Positions 1,595 through 14,842 are shown, counted from the first letter of the stretch. The stretch: DNA of 64,000 nucleotides from an uncultured archaeon (GCA_963810275.1 CAWENF010000004.1:32001-96000), one strand, 5' to 3'. Translations and numbers: made by a program. Notes: generated by a model from the letters alone, not told the origin.

Positions 1595-4500
1595 TTGACA
1601 AATACACAAAAAATATCAAAAGACGATGTTCACAATCTACTTAAAACCTTCTTTGCAGAAAAAGGATTAGTCCGCCAGCATCTCGACAGCTATAACGAGT
1701 TCATCGACCATGGACTTCAAGAAGTTGTCGACGAAGTTAACGAAATCCCCATCGAAGTGCCCGAAAGCCCCTACAAAGTTAAACTCGGCCAAATATGGGT
1801 CATTGACCCACAAAGCCGCATCACCGGTCCGTATGCAACCGAAGTAGACGGTACAAAACACGAAATCTACCCTATGGAAGCACGACTAAGAAACTTGGCG
1901 TACTCCGCACCAATCGCGCTTGAAATGACCCCCATCATTGACGGTCGCGAACAAGACACTGAACTAGTATACATCGGAAACATACCCGTTATGCTGAAGA
2001 GCAAACTTTGTTTCCTCAGCCAACTCAGCCGCGAGGAACTCATCGCTGCCGGCGAAGACCCAGATGATCAAGGCGGATACTTCGTCGTCAACGGCTCTGA
2101 ACGCGTTATTGTAGCTATGGAAGACCTTGCACCAAACCGTGTTATCGTCGACATTGACGATAAAGGCACCAGTCCAATTTATCAAGCTAAAATCTTCTCA
2201 ACAACAGTCGGCTTCAGAGCAAGAATCGAGCTCAAACTCAAGTCAGACGACGCAATCTACGTCACTATGCCCGGAGTCCCAACAGAAATCCCGTTCGTCG
2301 TCATCATGCGCGCTCTGAGCATGGAAAAAGACATCGATATCGCCGAAGCCGTATCCCTAGACAGCGACATCCAAGCCCACCTCGGCGCATCCTTCGAAAA
2401 AGCCATCGGCGTCGACACACCCCAAGATGCTATTCTCTTCATCGGCAACCGTGTTGCCCACGGACAAGTTGAAGAATACAGGCTCCAGAAAGCAGAAACC
2501 GCTCTAGACAAAAACTTCTTGCCGCACTTGGGCAGAAGCGACAAAAACCGCCGTGAAAAAGCCATTTTCCTCGGAGAAATGGCATATCGAGTCATCCAAC
2601 TTAAAATGGACAGGCGTACACCAGACGACAAAGACCACTTCAAAAATAAACGTCTAAGACTCGGGGGTCCCCTACTTGCAGACCTTTTCCGTGTTTCCTT
2701 CCGTAACTTGACACGCGACATTAAGTACCAGCTTGAACGAATAGGCGTTAAAGGGCCAATAATCACCGTGTCAGCCGCTGTCCGACCCGGAATAATAACT
2801 GAGCGTTTCCAGCATGCACTCGCCACAGGCAACTGGGGCAGAGGTAGAGTCGGCATTACCCAGCTACTGGACCGCACAAACTACATCTCAACCCTAAGCC
2901 ACCTCAGAAGGCTCCAGTCCCCCCTTTCCAGAAGCCAGCCGAACTTCGAAGCCAGAGACTTACACCCAACTCATTGGGGACGCTTATGCCCCAACGAGAC
3001 ACCTGAAGGCTCAAACTGTGGTCTCGTAAAAAACCTAGCATTATCAGCATCAATCGCCGTCGGAGTAAACCCTGACCGCATCCGCCAGTTGCTCTTCGAA
3101 ATGGGCACAGTCCCAGCATACGAAGCTACCAACGAACTACGCATTAACGGCGCAAAAGTATTCGTCGACGGAAACATCATAGGTTACTGCAACGACCCAC
3201 AGGAAATGGTGCAAAGTTTCCGCCAGAAACGCAGAGCAAACGAAATCTCAACAGAAGTCAACATAACCTATTTTAGCCGCGACCAAACCGAAACTGCGGA
3301 AGTCCACGCAAACTGCGACGAAGGACGCGTCAGACGCCCACTCATCATCGTAGAAAACGGCGTACCAAAACTTCAACCTAAGCACTTCGAGAAAATCGGC
3401 TCAGGCGAATGGACATGGGAAGACGTCATCAAAAACGGCTTAGTCGAGTACCTCGACGCTGAAGAAGAGGAAAACGCCTACATCGCATTAGACTACGGCG
3501 AAATTAAACCCCAAACATCACACTCCGAAATCGCCACATACACAATCCTTGGCATCTGCGCCTCAACAATCCCCTACCCCGAACACAACCAGTCACCACG
3601 TAATTCATACCAATCAGCAATGGCTAAACAGGCCCTTGGTGTGTACGGCACAAACTTCCACCATCGTGTCGACAGCCGCAGTCACATCCTGCACTACCCA
3701 CAAGTCCCCTTGGTGCAAACAGAAAACATGGATGTCATGGGCTACAAACAACGCCCGACAGGTCAAAACTGCGTTGTCGCAGTCTTGAGCTTCGAAGGCT
3801 ACAATATGGAAGATGCTATCATATTCAACAAAGCCTCAATTGAACGCGGACTAGCACGCAGCACATTCTACCGAATCTACGAAGCCGAATGTCGACAATA
3901 CTTCGGCGGACTCAAAGACAAATTCACAGTCCCCGAAGCAGGCACCCGAGGCTACAGAGGCGAACAATACTACCGCCTACTCGAACCAGACGGAATCATC
4001 AGCCTCGAAAGTCAAGTGGTCGGTGGAGATGTCTTAATTGGCAGAATCAGCCCGCCCCGTTTCCTTGAGGAATACAAGGAATTTGAAGTCAAAGGTCCCA
4101 GCATGCGCGACACATCGGTTGACATGCGCCCCAGCGAAACAGGGACCGTAGATGGCATATTTATCACCGAATCAGGCGAAGGTAGCCAACTCGTCAAAGT
4201 CCGAGTCAGAGACCAACGTGTCCCTGAACTGGGTGATAAATTCGCTTCACGTCACGGACAGAAAGGAGTCATCGGCTTAATCGTTCCACAAGAAGACCTT
4301 CCATTCACAGAGGAAGGCATGGTTCCAGACCTAATCATCAATCCACACGCTATTCCTAGCCGTATGACCATCGGGCAGTTCATCGAATCACTTGCAGGCA
4401 AAGCAGCTGCAGCACGGGGAAAACCAGCTGACGGCACACCATTTAGCAACGAAGGACCAGACGAAGTACGCAAAAACCTCGTCAAACTCGGATTCAGCCA

Positions 4501-4970: not shown

Positions 4971-7900
4971 ATGGCACAAACGGAAGAATTAATCCACAAA
5001 GTAGTAGATGAAATCTCGTTCGGCTTAATCTCACCCAAAGACCTCAGAAAACAATCTGTCGTAGAAATCCAAACTCCAGACACTTACGACGAAGACGGCG
5101 CACCCATCACTGCCGGCCTAATGGACGGCAGACTGGGCACACTTGAACCCCGCCAACGTTGCAAAACATGCGGCAACACCGCGATCCGTTGCCCCGGACA
5201 CTTCGGTCATATCGAACTAGCCGTACCAATCGTACACATTGAATTCACTAAAATCATCTTTGACCTCCTCAAATCCACCTGCCGGACGTGCGGACGCATT
5301 CTTCTCAGAGAAGAAGAAGCCAAAAAAGCATGCCAAAAAATTGAAAGATACAACGAGCTTTTGGGTGCAATTCCCGATGAAGTTTACAAAGAAATCATGA
5401 CTGACATCAAAGCCAAACAGTGTCCGTACTGCGCCGCAGCCCAATTCAAAATCACGTTTGAGAAGCCAACTAAATTCATCGAACAGACCGAATCAGGTTC
5501 TGAGCCGCTTACACCAAGCATGATTCGCGAACGCCTTGAACGTATCAGCGATGAAGACTTGGAAGTTTTGGGCTTCAACCCCAAAGTCGCACGGCCTGAG
5601 TGGATGGTTCTTCAGGTTTTGCCTGTTCCGCCAGTATATGTGCGTCCCTCAATCACTCTCGAATCAGGTATCCGTAGTGAGGACGACTTAACTCACAAAC
5701 TGGTTGACATCATCCGCATTAACCAGCGTCTCAAGGAGAACATGGAGGCAGGCGCCCCAACGCTTATCATCCAAGACCTCTCCGAGCTGCTCCAGTACCA
5801 CGTTACCACCTATTTTAACAACGAGGCCTCAGGTATTCCACCTGCACGCCACAGAAGCGGCAGAGCGCTAAAAACGATTAGTCAACGCTTAAAGGGTAAG
5901 GAAGGCCGATTTAGAAGCAATCTTTCAGGCAAACGTGTCGACTTCAGCGCCCGCACTGTAATCTCACCTGACCCTAACTTGGATATTAACGAGGTCGGTG
6001 TCCCCCGCGACGTAGCCATGCGCCTTAGTGTTCCAGAGAAAGTCACAGCTTGGAACCTTGAGGAAATGAAAAAACTCGTCGTCAACGGACCCGAAACCTA
6101 CCCAGGTGCGCTATACATAATTCGCCCAGATGGTAAACGTATTCGCCTCGAATTCGTCGTAGACCGCACAAAAATCGCTGAAGCAGTCGAACTCGGCTTC
6201 GTAGTTGAGCGCCACCTCAAAAACGGCGACATCGCAATCTTCAACCGTCAGCCCTCACTTCACCGCATGTCCATCATGGCCCACTACGTTAGAGTTCTGC
6301 CATACAAGACTTTCCGCATGCACCTCTGCGTCTGCCCACCATACAACGCAGACTTTGACGGCGACGAAATGAACCTCCACGTCCCACAAAGTGAGGAAGC
6401 CCGAACCGAGTCTTTGCTGCTTATGCAGGTGCAAGACCAAATTCTCTCACCTAGATTTGGCGGTCCAATCATCGGCGCCATCAGAGACTTCATTACAGGA
6501 GCATACTATTTCACTAAACGCGGTAACTACCTTACCCGTGGACAAGCTGATCGCATTCTAACAACCACTAGCTACCAAGGTGATTTGCCTGAACCCGAAA
6601 TCAAAGATCCCGAACCTCTTTGGTCAGGTAAACAAATCTTTAGCCTCTTCCTCCCTGAAACCTTGAACTACGTCCTTAAAGCCAATATTTGCCAAGGATG
6701 CAACAAATGCGAAGAAGAACTATGCAAACACGACGCCTATGTGGTCGTCAGAAATGGCCAACTCGTCAGCGGCATTATTGACCGTCGCAGCATCGGTTCA
6801 GAGCAGTCAGAAAGTTTGCTTCACAGAATTATAAAAGACTACGGCACACAGGCAGGCAGAGAATTCCTAAACAACATTACTCATATGCTCAAAACCTTCA
6901 TTTCGTTACGAGGCTTCAGCTACACCTATGACCAACTTGTCCTCTCGCCCCGCGCTCGCAACCGTATGGCAAAAACCATGGAACGAACTCAGAAGAAAAT
7001 CGATGAGCACATCGAAAACTTCCGAAACGGTACCCTGCCACGACTCCCCGGTCAGACCATGGAAGAATCCTTTGAGATTTACGTAATGCATGAGCTATCA
7101 ACCGCTCGTGACGAGTCAGGTAAGATTGCAGATGACGACTTTACTTTAGAGAACGCAGGCATCGTCATGACCCGTACAGGAGCAAGAGGCAGCAGTCTAA
7201 ACATCGGCCAGATGGCGGCTTGTGTCGGTCAGCAGTCAGTCCGTGGCAAACGTATCTTAAGAGGATACGCAGGACGCGCTCTGCCACACTTTGTTGCAAA
7301 CGATCCTCGCCCAAAAGCAAGAGGTTTTGTCTACAACAGTTACCAAACAGGCTTGGACGCAATAGAGTTCTTCTTCCACGCTATGGGTGGCAGGGAAGGT
7401 CTCGTCGACACAGCGGTCCGTACGCAGCAGAGCGGCTACATGCAGCGCAGGCTCATCAACGCACTTGAACACATCAGGCTTGAATACGACAGCACAGTTC
7501 GTGACAGCGCAGGCGACATTATCCAGTTCCGCTACGGCGAAGACGGCGTGGACCCTGCTAAAAGCGATCACGGCAAAGCAGTCAACGTCAGACGACTCAT
7601 TGACCAAGTTCGTTTAGGTGAAGAGAAAGGCGCCGAACCAGCCTCATTTGACTTTGTCAAGAAGCAACTCAAAAGTGTCGAAGGGCAAATTACTCCAATT
7701 CTGCTAGCACAGCTTAAACAGGGCTTCCAAAAATACAAACTCAGCGAGAAAGGCGTTGAGAAAGCCGTTACGATAACTGCCCAGCAGTACAAACGCGCTT
7801 TGATGGAGCCAGGCGAAGCAGTCGGTATCGTCGCAGCTCAATCAATCGGTGAGCCCGGCACTCAGATGACTCTTAGAACTTTCCACTATGCGGGTGTCAA

Positions 7901-8807
7901 AGAACAAAACGTTACCTTAGGTTTGCCTCGACTAATCGAAATTGTGGACGCCCGCAGAATTCCATCTACCCCAATTCAAACAATCTACCTAAATGGAGAT
8001 CACGGTAAAAGCAAAGAAGCCGCAGTCGAAGTAGCACGCAATATTATCTACACCAGTGTCGAGAACATTGCGTCAGCAATCTACGAAGACCCCGTCCGCG
8101 AAGAAATCATCATTGAAATCAGTAAACAAATGATGGACGACCGCAACATAACTATGGATGAACTCCGTGAACGCCTCGAGCTGCAAAACGCGACAGTTAC
8201 AATTACCGACACAACAGTTGAAATCAAACCCAAGAAAGTCGAACAAATTAAGCGTATGATGACTAAAATCCCAGGCTACCAAGTAAAAGGTGTTCCAGAC
8301 ATCAAACGTGTCTTGGTTACTGAGGAAAGCGGCGAATGGGTTATCCGTACTGACGGTTCTAACCTTGCAAAGGTATTGGAAGTTGAAGGCGTCGATACAT
8401 CACGCACAACCACCAACAACATCCACGAAATTGCCAAGACATTGGGCGTTGAAGCCAGCCGCAACGCACTGGTTAACGAAGCTAAAGGTGTGCTCGAAGA
8501 CCAAGGCTTAGACGTTGACGTCCGTCACGTGATGCTTGTTGCAGACATGATGACTACCACCGGAGACGTTCAGCAAATCGGTCGCCACGGCATCAGCGGC
8601 AAAAAAGCCAGTGTTCTTGCCCGCGCCGCATTCGAAATCACGGTTCCAAATATCGTTGAAGCAGCAGTGAAAGGTGAAAGTGATCCCTTAGCTGGAGTAA
8701 CAGAAAACGTTATAGTTGGGCAATCCATACCAATCGGCACAGGCTTAGTAGAACTCTACATGTCAACTTTCGAACGTCAAAGTAAAGATGGAGGAAAAAC
8801 AGAATAA
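4971..8807 (+). CDS. rpoA1: DNA-directed RNA polymerase subunit A, fused A'+A'' (Rpo1N+Rpo1C)
   Basis: CPGHFGHIEL, catalytic NADFDGD, and the A''-type GEPGTQMTL and RAAFE motifs all lie in one 1278-aa ORF. Confidence 0.97.
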   Translation: MAQTEELIHKVVDEISFGLISPKDLRKQSVVEIQTPDTYDEDGAPITAGLMDGRLGTLEPRQRCKTCGNTAIRCPGHFGHIELAVPIVHIEFTKIIFDLLKSTCRTCGRILLREEEAKKACQKIERYNELLGAIPDEVYKEIMTDIKAKQCPYCAAAQFKITFEKPTKFIEQTESGSEPLTPSMIRERLERISDEDLEVLGFNPKVARPEWMVLQVLPVPPVYVRPSITLESGIRSEDDLTHKLVDIIRINQRLKENMEAGAPTLIIQDLSELLQYHVTTYFNNEASGIPPARHRSGRALKTISQRLKGKEGRFRSNLSGKRVDFSARTVISPDPNLDINEVGVPRDVAMRLSVPEKVTAWNLEEMKKLVVNGPETYPGALYIIRPDGKRIRLEFVVDRTKIAEAVELGFVVERHLKNGDIAIFNRQPSLHRMSIMAHYVRVLPYKTFRMHLCVCPPYNADFDGDEMNLHVPQSEEARTESLLLMQVQDQILSPRFGGPIIGAIRDFITGAYYFTKRGNYLTRGQADRILTTTSYQGDLPEPEIKDPEPLWSGKQIFSLFLPETLNYVLKANICQGCNKCEEELCKHDAYVVVRNGQLVSGIIDRRSIGSEQSESLLHRIIKDYGTQAGREFLNNITHMLKTFISLRGFSYTYDQLVLSPRARNRMAKTMERTQKKIDEHIENFRNGTLPRLPGQTMEESFEIYVMHELSTARDESGKIADDDFTLENAGIVMTRTGARGSSLNIGQMAACVGQQSVRGKRILRGYAGRALPHFVANDPRPKARGFVYNSYQTGLDAIEFFFHAMGGREGLVDTAVRTQQSGYMQRRLINALEHIRLEYDSTVRDSAGDIIQFRYGEDGVDPAKSDHGKAVNVRRLIDQVRLGEEKGAEPASFDFVKKQLKSVEGQITPILLAQLKQGFQKYKLSEKGVEKAVTITAQQYKRALMEPGEAVGIVAAQSIGEPGTQMTLRTFHYAGVKEQNVTLGLPRLIEIVDARRIPSTPIQTIYLNGDHGKSKEAAVEVARNIIYTSVENIASAIYEDPVREEIIIEISKQMMDDRNITMDELRERLELQNATVTITDTTVEIKPKKVEQIKRMMTKIPGYQVKGVPDIKRVLVTEESGEWVIRTDGSNLAKVLEVEGVDTSRTTTNNIHEIAKTLGVEASRNALVNEAKGVLEDQGLDVDVRHVMLVADMMTTTGDVQQIGRHGISGKKASVLARAAFEITVPNIVEAAVKGESDPLAGVTENVIVGQSIPIGTGLVELYMSTFERQSKDGGKTE

Positions 8808-11081: not shown

Positions 11082-11463
11082 CTATTCACCCTCTAAGACG
11101 ATATTTCTCTAGTAATTGCCTATGCATTAAAGTGATATTCCAGAAATGGTAGTATATCTATTAGCTAATCTGAAATATCCTAAATCTATGCGGCAAATTC
11201 TCCTCGAGTTCGATATGCACTTAATCGCAATTTAGAAATCAACTGGTTCAGTTGAATGATTTAGGATTAGGCTGATCAGTAAAGAATTTTCTTTAAGGCA
11301 ATCGCCCAATAAATTAACTTTTTCAGGCACAGTAGAAACCCCTAATTCGCAATAAAAAAGAAAGGGATAAAAATTGCGAGAGATTTCGCCATTTTTCTCC
11401 GTTTTAGTTAAATAAGAGACTAATCCACTACTATTTTCTAACAATAGAGGCAAATAATTAATC

Positions 11464-13383
11464 ATGCTTATCCAGGAACTTATTGTCGAGAACTTTATGA
11501 GTTATGAGTACGCTCGCGTGCCATTTAAATCGGGCGTCAACATAATTGGGGGACCGAATGGTGCAGGCAAATCTAGTCTGCTACTTGCCATATCGGTGGG
11601 TTTGGGGCAGACCAGCACCGAGCGCAGCCGCAAACTTAGCGACCTAATCCGATGGGGCCAAGACCAAGCCCGCGTCACACTCATTTTAGATAATCAAAAA
11701 CAGGGTGCAAGAAGACCTGAACAAAAATACAACAAAGACCATCTCTTCCTAACACGGTTTTTGCGCAGAGACGGCAAATACTGGTTTGAACTCGAAAACA
11801 AAGTCGCCAGCAAACAGGACGTGGAACGCTTGTTGGGCAAGTTCGGTGTGGACCCAAACAATATGCTAATCATAATGCACCAGAATATGGTGGAACAGTT
11901 TAGTGTGCAAAGTAACGTCACCAAACTTCACATGGTAGAAGAAGCCGTGGGTTTGGAGCCTTTCCGCGAGAACGTTGTGCAAGCAAAAACAAAACTAACT
12001 CGCATCCTCACTCAGGAGGAATCTGTTGGGAAACTGCTTGAGCAGGCAGAGCAGACACTCAACTACTGGCGCGAGCAGTACGAGAAGTTTCAGGAGAAAA
12101 AGCAGCTTCAACTCAAACGACGTTTTCTTGACCGCGAATTATTATGGGCTGAGGTGGAACGACGAGAAACCATCGTAAAGGCGTTGCAGACTAACCATAA
12201 CAAGACGCAGGTTGCATTGGCTAAAATCGAGGACGAACGACAATCCCTAATTGGTGAGTTGGACGGGCACCAGACCCAGCAGAAGACGCTTCGCAGCCAA
12301 ATGCGGGGCTTGTTTGATGAGCGGCTGGATTTGGAGAGAAGAATCGCTCAGAACCAGTCGCAGTTTTCGCTCGTGGAGCAGTTGATATCCGAAGCCGAGA
12401 TGCTTGAAAAAGTCGTTGACACCAGCCTGTTTAAGCTGCTACGGGTTGATAGCCTGCGCGAAATGCTTGAGGTATCTCAAAAGCAAATAAAGACAACAAC
12501 AGAACAGATTCAGGATAACCAGTCCAAACTCCAAAAGCTGGAAACAAACACCGATAAAATTGCCGCTTACTCACTGGATAAACGGGTAACCATTGCCCTT
12601 TTAAATTTCCGCCGCGACCGAGCAGTAAAAGACCGTGAAAACACCGAAAAACAGCTAAAAGAGGTGCAGGACAACCTTGCCGCTGCAGTTGCAAAAGCAC
12701 AGGAATCGGGCGAACGCATAGCAGTGCTAAAATCCACCTCTGAAATCCAGGAGGAAATGGGCTTAACCGATGGCCACCTTCAAGCGTTGCAGGGTGTATC
12801 GGAGGAGATTGAGCGCCAATATGAGTCATACTCCAAACTGTATTTGGAGCTTAAGGAGAAGGCGCAGTTGGTGGCTGAGAACCGCGAGAAGACTCTTGAG
12901 GAAGTGAAGACTCGGTTTGTGGCTTGGCGCAGTGTTATGGAAAACCTCATTGACCGTGTGAATGTGGAATACCAGCGCATAATGAGCCAAACCCTTGCCA
13001 CAGGCGAGGTGTTACTGTCGAACCCTCAGGACATCGAAACTGCCGGGCTAGAAATCTATGTTGGCTTCAAAGGTAGCAAACCAGTCGCGTTGGACGCCTA
13101 CACGCAGAGTGGCGGTGAACGTACAACCGCTACCATGGGCTTTCTACTTGCTTTACAGCAGCATGTGCGTAGTCCCTTCCGAGCAGTGGACGAATATGAC
13201 ATCCACATGGACCCCAAAAACCGGGAAATGATAGCCAAAGTCCTTGTAGCAATTATTAAAGACGCTGCCTCGCAGTACGTCGTCATCACGCCCAGCCAAA
13301 TAACATTTGCCCAACGCGACGCAAACGTCATAACAGTGCAGAACTTGGAGGGCAAATCCGCAGTGCGCGAGGTGGTCAACTAA
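11464..13383 (+). CDS. short SMC-family ATPase, Smc5/6-like
   Basis: Walker A GPNGAGKS, Q-loop IMHQN, long coiled coil, signature QSGGERT, Walker B/D-loop PFRAVDEYDIHMDPKN, SQYVVITP. Confidence 0.88.
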   Translation: MLIQELIVENFMSYEYARVPFKSGVNIIGGPNGAGKSSLLLAISVGLGQTSTERSRKLSDLIRWGQDQARVTLILDNQKQGARRPEQKYNKDHLFLTRFLRRDGKYWFELENKVASKQDVERLLGKFGVDPNNMLIIMHQNMVEQFSVQSNVTKLHMVEEAVGLEPFRENVVQAKTKLTRILTQEESVGKLLEQAEQTLNYWREQYEKFQEKKQLQLKRRFLDRELLWAEVERRETIVKALQTNHNKTQVALAKIEDERQSLIGELDGHQTQQKTLRSQMRGLFDERLDLERRIAQNQSQFSLVEQLISEAEMLEKVVDTSLFKLLRVDSLREMLEVSQKQIKTTTEQIQDNQSKLQKLETNTDKIAAYSLDKRVTIALLNFRRDRAVKDRENTEKQLKEVQDNLAAAVAKAQESGERIAVLKSTSEIQEEMGLTDGHLQALQGVSEEIERQYESYSKLYLELKEKAQLVAENREKTLEEVKTRFVAWRSVMENLIDRVNVEYQRIMSQTLATGEVLLSNPQDIETAGLEIYVGFKGSKPVALDAYTQSGGERTTATMGFLLALQQHVRSPFRAVDEYDIHMDPKNREMIAKVLVAIIKDAASQYVVITPSQITFAQRDANVITVQNLEGKSAVREVVN

Positions 13384-14208
13384 TGACGTCAAAAGAATCG
13401 CATGAGAAGCGTGTGGGCAAAGAGCGCCTGCAAGTTATCATCGACATGTGCACTGCGATTGAAACCCGTCAAGTTGATCCCTTCACGCTAAACGTTGACG
13501 ACATCATCGGTGTGGTGCAACAATATTTTCCTCACTGGAACCATCTTGAGGAGCTTAAACTCGACGCCGAAGCACTCCACCACCTTGCGTCTGTAGTGAA
13601 GATACAGAGCGAATGGGTTAAGCACCGCTCTACCTCACTCTACACCGACCCTTTTCTGCTGGAAGAGAAAGATTCGCCAGACCAGCAAGCAAGGAATGCT
13701 TGACGTGTTCGCCTCCGCTTGGACACCTCTGGTGGAGTCTGAGCAGCTCACCCTAAACGCTTTGTCGCAGGGTCTGTTGTACTGGGAGGCACTGCCGCCT
13801 TTGGGCAACCGCTGGAAAGACATCAACGTCTCCGCAGTGGATGCGGGGCAAGTTAGCCGCGATGAGTTGGTTAAGCAGCGGGTGTTGGGCGAACGCGAAT
13901 TCGGCGAGGAACTTGACTGCTACTGGCGCCAACTTAAAGACAAAGCGGCTGAGCACGGCGGAAAAATAGCGTATTGGGATTTTATCGGTGCTGCCACGTA
14001 TGAGGAGACGGTTCAACGTGCTTTTCTCACAGCTTTCCTAGTAACATATGGGTATGCCACGCTGGAAGTTGACAGACTCGAAGAAACTATCACAATCATT
14101 CCACTGGAAACCCCCAGAACCGAAGCCCTATCTGTGCAGTCAACCTCCGTCCCAATTGCGGTCTCGGTGGAGGACTATCAGAACTGGAGAGAAGGAAAAC
14201 AATCATGA
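13383..14208 (+). CDS. kleisin (ScpA/Nse4-like); split by one extra base near 13668-13671
   Basis: N-terminal VDPFTLNVDDII...AEALHHLASVVKIQS and C-terminal winged helix YEETVQRAFLTAFLVTYGYATL match the ScpA layout; removing one A joins EEK-IRQTSKQGMLDVF. Confidence 0.7.
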
Positions 14209-14816
14209 GTACCCGCAAAAAAGGAGTATATGCAGGCAAAATCAAAAAAGCCACTCAGATGCTGTTCTATAAGCGCCACGCTAAACCTGGCGTGAAGGGC
14301 TGGGAACTCCACAAGGCGCTGGGCAGCGATTACCCTAAGGTGCTTGACGTCTTGGATGATTACCTAAAACCGATGGATTTGCAGGTTAAAACCGTTTTTG
14401 AGGAGGAAAAAACCCCCGAGAAGCCATCGATGGAAGAGCTAGATACAGCCCGTTTCTTTATCGCCCTACGCGACGTGGCTACAAAGGACAAGTTGATGGG
14501 CTGGCGAGTTGATGACCTCGCAGGCTTAGCAGTCACAATAAGCTACATAGTCGCTAAAAAGGGTCAGGCGCCAAGAAAAGACGTCGAGAAGCTGTTGAGT
14601 GAGAAAATCGCTAACTGGAAAGTCGGCTTAAACCTTGACCGCTACATCCGAAACGGCTACCTATCTCAAGACGACAAAGGGCAACTGTATTTGGATTGGC
14701 GCACGCGGGCTGAGGTGGACCAGAAGAAACTGATTGACATGCTGCTTTCGGCCGAAAAACAGGGTTCTGCTAACGAGGCGGATGCCGGCTCCTCTGGTTT
14801 GGGCGCTGAAGACTAA
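14205..14816 (+). CDS. tandem winged-helix KITE subunit (ScpB/Nse1/Nse3-like)
   Basis: ATGA overlap with the kleisin; two WH-like units; C-terminal LDRYIRNGYL...LYLDWRTRAEV resembles the Nse1/MAGE WH-B end. Confidence 0.62.
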   Translation: MSTRKKGVYAGKIKKATQMLFYKRHAKPGVKGWELHKALGSDYPKVLDVLDDYLKPMDLQVKTVFEEEKTPEKPSMEELDTARFFIALRDVATKDKLMGWRVDDLAGLAVTISYIVAKKGQAPRKDVEKLLSEKIANWKVGLNLDRYIRNGYLSQDDKGQLYLDWRTRAEVDQKKLIDMLLSAEKQGSANEADAGSSGLGAED

Positions 14817-14842
14817 GCGCTTTTTTTGTTTCTTTTCTTCTC
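14817..14842 (+). terminator. oligo-T terminator after the SMC operon
   Basis: TTTTTTTTGTTTCTTTTCTTCT immediately after the stop codon. Confidence 0.5.

Follow-up and report, generated by a model that had tools for sequence, protein, structure and literature searches.

How an archaeal operon encoding a structural maintenance of chromosomes (SMC) ATPase and two small partner proteins should be placed among the known SMC complexes is the question raised by a 64,000-nt stretch of DNA from an uncultured archaeon (GCA_963810275.1, CAWENF010000004.1:32001-96000), hereafter the window. Between positions 11464 and 14816 the window carries three co-oriented, overlapping genes followed by an oligo-T tract, which an earlier reading of the sequence alone (the sequence-only reading) had described as a complete SMC, kleisin and KITE set resembling Smc5/6. 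The layout was found as described: genes 1 and 2 overlap in TAATG (13381-13385), genes 2 and 3 overlap in ATGA (14205-14208), and the stop codon of gene 3 (TAA, 14814-14816) is followed by GCGC and seven T. Operons of this kind have already been published, and the window locus is an instance of them. With a probability of about 85%, we conclude that it represents, in Bathyarchaeia, the archaeal "SMC5/6-related" complex, encoding in one operon a Smc5/6-type SMC, an Nse4-like kleisin and an Nse1/Nse3(MAGE)-like KITE, and that its role is most likely housekeeping chromosome maintenance beside a canonical Smc-ScpAB.

Sequence and phylogeny of the SMC head

The product of gene 1 matched Pfam SMC_N with an E-value of 1.2e-33. 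All the head motifs quoted in the sequence-only reading, as well as the L.LDWRTRAE motif of gene 3, were present in the translations; in gene 1 they lie at residues 9 (ENFMSY), 30 (GPNGAGKSS), 45 (VGLG), 548 (QSGGER), 572 (FRAVDEYD), 581 (HMDPKNRE) and 603 (SQYVVITP). The ABC-ATPase set, formed by GPNGAGKSS, Q140, QSGGER and D576-E577, is complete and invariant in an alignment of 28 family sequences. When the protein was compared with the PDB using phmmer, the ten best sequences were all Smc6 or Smc5 (2.3e-27 to 2.1e-24), and the alignments with human and yeast Smc6 spanned SGGER..., SPFR.(V/L)DE(Y/F)D(I/V).MD..NR and Q(Y/F)..(I/L)TP. These C-terminal head motifs are of the Smc5/6 type, in contrast to the LDEVDAHLD and QFIVISL of the canonical SMC encoded in the same genome. 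A profile built from the 28 sequences scored 266 bits against Smc6, 262 against Smc5, 235 against Smc2, 227 against Pyrococcus Smc and 64 against Rad50. As a control, the canonical SMC of the genome matched Pyrococcus and Bacillus Smc and Smc1-4, and none of its 44 hits at E<=1e-20 was Smc5 or Smc6. Gene 1 remained under all the NCBIfam equivalog cut-offs (SMC_prok_A, 163.7 versus 729.4; Rad50, 74.3 versus 700; ASRP, 57.9 versus 300).

A filter-free search of 1.84 billion representative proteins returned 8137 hits at E<=0.001, 127 of them at E<=1e-30. Next after the archaeal family came proteins of 1024-1129 aa with about 25% identity. Names were looked up for 20 proteins, five of which were long archaeal relatives; among the other 15, seven belonged to SMC5/SMC6 clusters (insects, fungi, a nematode and a tick), four had other eukaryotic names and four were nameless, and none was called another SMC subfamily.

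To place the head in a tree, its N- and C-terminal parts were aligned separately and then concatenated. In a quick tree of 61 rows, which did without the Rad50-like row and P0374 (the motif pattern missed both), canonical SMC proteins split from the rest with a Shimodaira-Hasegawa-like approximate likelihood-ratio support of 98. The careful maximum-likelihood tree comprised 52 rows and 304 columns (LG+C20+F+G4, posterior mean site frequencies) and was rooted on the Rad50-like protein of the genome; ten rows chosen beforehand had been set aside (the long branches P0382 and P0322, four unnamed long proteins and four short forms), as had P0374. A branch with support 99/98 united 42 rows, namely 24 short forms including that of the window, five longer archaeal proteins and 13 eukaryotic SMC5/6 proteins, and the nine canonical archaeal SMC proteins fell outside it. 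Within a 100/98 branch, the eukaryotic SMC5 plus SMC6 clade (98/93) formed a polytomy with archaeal short-form lineages, a result that is consistent with published trees. By head phylogeny, the window SMC belongs to the SMC5/6 clade, apart from canonical archaeal SMC and from Rad50. The proposal that this head is nearer to Smc5/Smc6 than to canonical Smc was thus borne out by the PDB hits, by the representatives search and by the tree, which had been named beforehand as a check and was built from archaeal and eukaryotic rows.

Kleisin and KITE subunits

In the window, gene 2 is broken into two open reading frames (ORFs). As had been suspected, one indel accounts for this: a single extra base lies at about 13668-13671, and the two pieces align to intact homologues, which are nearly all single ORFs of 272-278 aa. 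Compared with one of them, P0122, the N-terminal piece is 82% and the C-terminal piece 87% identical, with no further defect. At 13665-13674 the window has GAGAAAGATT, whereas the DNA of 12 relatives shows GAGAAGATT, GAAAAAATC or synonymous variants; the extra base lengthens a short A run. In a sample of 40 related genomes the kleisin is encoded in one open frame in all 34 gene-bearing relatives (35 of 41 genomes carry the gene when the window's own is counted), and within this sample the split is confined to the window's genome. Four public sequencing runs were also compared through their Logan contigs, which are 95-99% alike to the window; the three that cover the site all have one letter fewer at 13667. 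These runs contain at most 0.45 of the sampled words, so that the comparison does not reach the assembly's own reads, and no RNA run was listed. Programmed +1 frameshifting was considered and rejected, given that the relatives and the related contigs do without the extra base. These sequence comparisons make it most likely that the frameshift arose in assembly or as a private mutation; the gene as such does not carry it.

If the frameshift were real, the operon might be decaying in this organism and its complex would be non-functional, a reading that we hold to be rather unlikely. It would be favoured by the place of the lesion, which cuts the kleisin at residue 96-100, in the segment modelled to bind KITE (see below), and it is left some room by the runs, none of which was found to contain the whole stretch (best share of words, 0.45). 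Both kleisin pieces are nevertheless otherwise free of defects, the SMC and KITE genes are intact, and the extra base is missing in 3/3 covering runs and from the single frame of 34/34 relatives. Addition of a base to a short A run is, besides, a common type of assembly error.

The assignment of gene 2 to the Nse4-like kleisins is supported by several sequence comparisons. The C-terminal piece matched Pfam Nse4_C with an E-value of 1.7e-4 (22.2 bits) and P0122 with 5.2e-5 (23.9 bits), for a gathering score of 26. At E<=0.1 the same model also picked up 17 of the 23 sequences in the kleisin alignment (best 3.4e-7), and precomputed PF08743 annotations exist for many of the listed 120 homologues, one of which NCBI names "non-structural maintenance of chromosomes element 4". 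A kleisin family profile searched against the PDB found five sequences: four were Nse4/EID3 (E-values of 0.0025-0.013) and the fifth was the N-terminal domain of ScpA (0.29), matched over profile positions 14-76. In the ESM Atlas, a eukaryotic Nse4 cluster stood at 0.91 to the kleisin. Thus, of the two kleisin patterns announced from the sequence, the C-terminal winged helix was recovered through Nse4_C and the Nse4 chains. The N-terminal SMC-binding domain is weakly supported, through the ScpA match, and the N-terminal piece gave nothing meaningful in Pfam or NCBIfam.

One relative showed an unusual arrangement of this gene. On contig C16 of genome G010 there are two kleisin copies on the same strand (585-1399 and 3176-3991), about 1.8 kb apart; one is intact and the second is split into residues 3-227 and 225-272. 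Either a local duplication that has since decayed or a fault of assembly could account for the second copy.

The gene 3 protein has a basic N-terminus, an acidic tail, no RING and no cysteine, and carries LYLDWRTRAE near its end. Its AlphaFold2 model is a tandem winged helix, with a mean predicted local distance difference test (pLDDT) score of 79. Searched with Foldseek, this model gave eight matches at E<=0.001, all of them KITE-family entries. Two chains of an Nse1-Nse3-Nse4 entry (7dg2_C and 7dg2_A) came first at 5e-5, followed by MAGE-G1/NSE1, JetB (8as8_C at 3.1e-4, 8dk1_E/F) and MAGE-A4, with ScpB and MukE ranking lower. The independent VIA-align comparison, carried out against 48,161 representative chains, gave Z scores of 11.1 for 7dg2_A (169 aligned residues), 10.3 for 7qcd_E of the Smc5/6 holocomplex (182), 9.9 for MAGEG1 (154) and 8.7 for ScpB. 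Archaeal "putative MAGE domain" clusters and eukaryotic MAGE clusters of the Atlas stood at 0.92-0.95 to gene 3. The predicted fold therefore supports the identification of gene 3 as an Nse1/Nse3/MAGE-like tandem winged-helix KITE, in agreement with the sequence-only reading; because it has neither RING nor cysteine, it is not an Nse1 orthologue. Homologues of gene 3 numbered 3618 at E<=0.001, the best 120 being 78-100% identical. Two close homologues, P0013 and P0014, are labelled "vancomycin resistance protein YoaR" by JGI, which looks like an annotation error given the fold and context of gene 3.

We then modelled one kleisin, represented by the intact P0122, with two KITE copies. The interface score (ipSAE) was 0.64 (0.62, 0.64 and 0.65 in three runs) and the best of three controls reached 0.00. 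A mark of 0.64 is attained by 116 of 157 solved complexes and by 2 of 215 mismatched pairs, a calibration outside which our model falls, as it was fed its own alignments. Contacts agreed to at least 75% between runs and the partners had a pLDDT of at least 76. Both KITE copies were placed on residues 87-139, where the kleisin is most conserved. The model thus supports the idea that the centre of the kleisin binds two copies of KITE.

Genomic setting, distribution and alternative readings

The order SMC, kleisin, third gene was conserved in all 25 loci of relatives that lay on the plus strand with enough flanking sequence; because this order is kept in 25/25 loci, the locus is not a chance assemblage. 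In addition, contig C14 of the same genome carries a second operon with the same gene order, encoding an SMC of 1184 aa (SMC_hinge, 1.5e-19), a ScpA-like kleisin of 235 aa (ScpA, 1.9e-4; Rad21_Rec8, 0.0087) and a ScpB of 251 aa (1.5e-34). As a search of the whole genome with Pfam ScpA gave no match, this canonical kleisin was traced by its position and by a weak hit.

The KITE gene was found in 97 of the 121 genomes of a class sample and, in a phylum sample, strong matches to the Smc5/6-like SMC (E<=1e-64) occurred in 88 of 151 genomes, the window's own being counted in both; the ORFs of the latter were mostly of 580-700 aa. The two SMC types were patchily distributed by family. Some families had both; family f38 had strong matches to canonical SMC only; in family f44 the Smc5/6-like SMC was present in 15 of 15 genomes and canonical SMC was not found, with the query used, in the five searched; and family f47 had neither type (0/13 and 0/4). 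That the Smc5/6-like form is the only SMC found in one lineage argues for a housekeeping role at the chromosome.

Upstream of the operon lie rpoB, rpoA, L30e and a gene for a NusA-like KH protein, and downstream a membrane protein gene, a low-molecular-weight phosphatase/ArsC-like gene and ArsR. The setting is an RNA polymerase/L30e/NusA-like cluster and not a defence island. No nuclease domain was found among the neighbours, nor a JetD-like gene, the latter as the sequence-only reading had noted. The stem-loop at the end of gene 3 and its T tract (14801-14827) are likely to form the transcription end of the operon, in a region where terminator-like sites numbered seven for a mean of 5.6 in shuffled sequence. 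Ahead of gene 1, the TATA-like box and the GAGG listed in Table 1 are possible promoter and ribosome-binding signals.

Table 1. Coordinates of the operon, its candidate signals and the second SMC operon (window positions unless otherwise indicated)
Feature	Position	Strand	Basis or remark
Candidate TATA-like box TTAAATAA	11408..11415	+	~50 nt upstream of SMC start
Candidate ribosome-binding site GAGG	11447-11450		sequence only
SMC ATPase gene, 639 aa	11464..13383	+	ORF
SMC protein parts	residues ~1-160 (N-head); 165-317 (outgoing helix); 318-325 (apex loop); 326-509 (return helices); 510-639 (C-head)		
Kleisin ORFs, 106 aa and 170 aa	13383-13703; 13696-14208 (frame +1)	+	ORF
Kleisin N-terminal part, residues 1 to ~96 of intact protein	13383..13671	+	frame 0; premature stop 13701-13703
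Frameshift site, one extra base	13668..13671	+	comparison with relatives' DNA
Kleisin central and C-terminal winged-helix part	13672..14208	+	frame +1
KITE gene, 203 aa	14205..14816	+	ORF
Stem-loop over gene 3 stop codon, with T7 to 14827	14801-14822	+	consensus match
Canonical SMC operon	G000:C14:91700-96720 (locus L054 1219-6222)	-	same gene order

In the same neighbourhood, RNA polymerase subunit A is encoded by a single ORF of 1278 aa (4971-8807, plus strand) containing Rpb1 domains 1-5. Unlike in many archaea, this rpoA is not split into A' and A''; it is flanked by rpoB, L30e and the NusA-like KH protein gene.

This setting bears on a second alternative, namely that the operon encodes a Wadjet/JetABC- or Lamassu-type SMC system directed against plasmids or viruses, whose nuclease has been lost or lies elsewhere, and not a chromosome-maintenance complex. 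JetABC has the same three-part layout, JetB is among the fold matches of the KITE subunit, the window SMC gave weak PADLOC hits (LmuB, 4.2e-18; JetC, 2.7e-5, 20.6 bits with no stretch passing alone) and human Smc5/6 restricts extrachromosomal DNA, according to the available text of PMC10586767. The PADLOC hits reflect, nonetheless, the generic ATPase, and neither kleisin nor KITE matched any PADLOC model; Nse1/Nse3 ranked above JetB in both fold searches. Nor is there an adjacent JetD/Toprim-like or other nuclease gene in this rpo/L30e/NusA-like setting. Finally, the genes are highly conserved and present in most genomes sampled (KITE in 97/121, the best 120 listed being 78-100% identical), and one family has the Smc5/6-like SMC yet no canonical SMC found with the query used. 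We regard this defence reading as improbable; the part in sensing foreign DNA and the homodimeric SMC that the sequence-only reading had offered remain inferences.

It is very improbable that the operon is just another Smc-ScpAB of the canonical archaeal kind that has diverged and bears no particular relation to Smc5/6. The best NCBIfam model was indeed SMC_prok_A, at 163.7 bits for a cut-off of 729.4; Pyrococcus Smc came near Smc5/6 in the single-sequence PDB search (2.2e-24 versus 2.3e-27) and first in the fold search; and ScpB and ScpA were among the lower matches of KITE and kleisin. Against these stand the 99/98 split from nine canonical SMC proteins in the head tree, the C-terminal motifs that differ from the LDEVDAHLD and QFIVISL of the canonical protein, and the partners: the window kleisin matches Nse4_C where its canonical neighbour matches ScpA/Rad21, and the window KITE has no ScpB Pfam hit where the canonical one scores 1.5e-34. 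Hardly tenable, finally, is a zinc-hook protein (Rad50 or ASRP/ClsN/Sph) lying merely beside two unrelated genes: the 639 aa and short coiled coil do resemble ClsN (68 kDa with about 350 aa of coiled coil, in the text available of PMC9764264), there are weak NCBIfam hits to Rad50 (74.3 bits) and ASRP (57.9) and three long relatives have a mid-protein CxxC, but the window SMC has zero cysteines, those scores fall short of 700 and 300, the family profile gives Rad50 chains 64 bits versus 266 for Smc6, and the adjacent genes encode a kleisin and a KITE, which were modelled in one complex and are syntenic everywhere tested.

Several observations weigh against placing the locus with the Smc5/6-related complexes. 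Beyond the calibration of the complex model, its good score may stem from likeness to solved Nse1/3/4 and ScpAB complexes that the model had memorised. The head tree has no rows for Smc1-4 or bacterial SMC, its eukaryotic rows were picked as hits to the window SMC and its outgroup is one very long branch (5.39). A Foldseek search with the SMC model put Pyrococcus Smc first (5.5e-22) and Smc6 second; to judge from that model, a fold search cannot separate SMC subfamilies. For the kleisin, the Nse4_C scores of the window piece and of P0122 are both under the gathering score, the profile E-values against Nse4 chains are modest, the N-terminal domain is the weakly supported part and the frameshift falls inside the modelled KITE-binding stretch, so that the complex would be inactive in this strain if it is real. 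Sequence searches with gene 3 gave no match in Pfam, NCBIfam or PADLOC, and its best PDB profile hit (E-value of 0.016) was an unrelated surface antigen. Moreover, with no hinge or hook found, the homodimeric ring that is assumed has no identified closure on the arm side.

Arms of the SMC protein and comparison with known systems

The AlphaFold2 model of the SMC protein, with a mean pLDDT of 88.6, has an outgoing helix, a low-confidence loop of eight residues (318-325) and return helices at 326-415, 425-441 and 449-509; it shows no trace of a globular hinge and leaves no space for one. Pfam SMC_hinge did not match gene 1, in contrast to the canonical SMC of the genome, and gene 1 has zero cysteines, which excludes a zinc hook in this protein. 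In the 28-sequence alignment, conservation is lowest at the apex, whose length also varies. Among the best 150 representatives, 73 proteins were full length and 49 of these were short forms of 548-685 aa; in all 49, Walker A and the signature motif are 429-563 aa apart, and none has a CxxC between them. To judge from these sequences, the short hinge-less form is the norm of the family. The Pfam hinge model is uninformative for the long archaeal relatives and for the eukaryotic SMC5/6 hits, most of the eukaryotic ones missing it too. With 153 helical residues per arm and 0.15 nm per residue, we estimate an arm of about 22 nm, for about 50 nm in canonical SMC proteins. In the strict sense, an SMC architecture includes a dimerising apex hinge, which has no counterpart here, and the filing of the protein in the Smc5/6 clade rests on head phylogeny.

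Longer relatives display other apices. P0335, of 835 aa, matches Pfam SMC_hinge (4.6e-11) and branches at the base of the Smc5/6-like clade, which hints that the plain loop of the short forms may be a secondary loss. Three relatives of 1016-1047 aa, P0257, P0258 and P0270, bear a conserved C-[DE]-[KR]-C-G-S at residues 531, 542 and 522, that is, at the exact midpoint of the protein, like the zinc hook of Rad50/ASRP and on a Smc5/6-type head. The NCBIfam ASRP model aligns through its centre with the middles of P0257 and P0270. The head tree puts the three proteins inside the short-form clade, beside P0249 (100/98), and the clusters of P0257 and P0258 are labelled Candidatus Bathyarchaeota.

If the complex works like its homologues Smc5/6 and Smc-ScpAB, two SMC heads would engage upon two ATP, and a single kleisin would bridge them, with its N-terminal helices on one neck and its C-terminal winged helix on the other cap. 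A KITE dimer would sit on the central kleisin segment, DNA would be clamped by the head/KITE module, and ATP turnover would lead to DNA entrapment or translocation. The analysis shows the identities of the genes, their folds, their place in the phylogeny, their synteny and an unbroken kleisin allele among related sequences; stoichiometry, clamping and cellular role are inferred. Because there is neither a hinge nor a zinc hook, dimerisation would have to come from heads, kleisin and KITE, or from an unrecognised contact at the apex.

Tentatively, and at somewhat less than even odds, we propose that Bathyarchaeia, and much of their phylum, have in their Smc5/6-like SMC a natural mini-SMC with arms of about 22 nm ending in a plain loop. 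Its ring would be held only by heads, kleisin and KITE dimer, its apex would be exchangeable (a hook-like CxxC in close relatives, a hinge in eukaryotes), and it could be the only SMC found in some lineages. If true, it would be the smallest natural system for probing the roles of the hinge and of long arms in DNA entrapment and loop extrusion. The main interest of the locus lies in these very short, apparently hinge-less arms on a clear Smc5/6-type head, conserved over many lineages. Arm length or a missing hinge in archaeal Smc5/6-like SMC was discussed neither in the main text of van Hooff et al., nor in the passages available of Yoshinaga and Inagaki, nor in the full-text literature, and the supplements of the preprints may cover them. 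Biochemical characterisation of these archaeal complexes was not found in the literature either, and a small three-protein Smc5/6 relative, thermostable or easily expressed, would suit structural and single-molecule work.

Among known systems, ClsN (coalescin) and the other ASRPs resemble the window protein in being small archaeal members of the SMC superfamily with a short coiled coil. They differ in that the window SMC has no cysteine, scores 57.9 versus 300 against the ASRP model and is accompanied by a kleisin and a KITE. The sequence-only reading had counted ClsN among Smc5/6-related proteins, and in this it was mistaken: in the parts consulted of PMC9389158 and PMC9764264, ClsN belongs to the ASRP family, a separate clade whose members dimerise via a zinc hook (PMC9389158). 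Wadjet JetABC(D) and MukBEF share the SMC-kleisin-KITE layout, and JetB and MukE are weaker fold matches of the window KITE; the window lacks JetD, its kleisin and KITE match no PADLOC model and the scores of its SMC do not point to a JetC- or MukB-like head. Prokaryotic Smc-ScpAB has in common the gene order, the presumed SMC and KITE homodimers and the overall mechanism. It forms a separate clade, the genome's own copy has an 1184-aa SMC with a Pfam hinge, and genes 2 and 3 gave no ScpA or ScpB Pfam match.

The likeness to eukaryotic Smc5/6 extends to SGGER, DE[FY]D..MD..NR and Q[YF]..ITP in the head, the Nse4_C winged helix, the MAGE/Nse-like KITE and the seating of KITEs on the middle of the kleisin. 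Eukaryotes have two SMC genes of about 1050-1130 aa together with Nse1 and Nse3, whereas the window has one SMC gene of 639 aa without a hinge domain and one KITE gene without RING; no Nse2 or Nse5/6 was seen adjoining the operon. The closest precedents are archaeal. Yoshinaga and Inagaki (2021; 10.1101/2021.05.15.444277), in the passages available, define a "SMC5/6-related aSMC" with 80 homologues, 66 of them from TACK, place Candidatus Bathyarchaeota in the aSMC clade next to SMC5 plus SMC6 and report that it often coexists with canonical SMC. Our head tree reproduces their grouping; their study deals with SMC only and found no kleisin or kite partners in archaea. The main text of van Hooff et al. 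(bioRxiv) describes SMC-kleisin-kite operons of TACK and Asgard archaea, one of them SMC5/6-related with a Nse4-related kleisin and a Nse1/3-like kite. That operon has the same three subunits and likewise occurs beside a condensin/cohesin-related operon in one genome, and, as far as that text goes, nothing essential differs. The presence of Smc5/6-like and canonical Smc-ScpAB operons in one genome supports the scenario, already published, in which an SMC operon was duplicated before eukaryotes, but adds little to it. Overall, the window locus cleanly illustrates the archaeal complex that is regarded as ancestral to eukaryotic Smc5/6.

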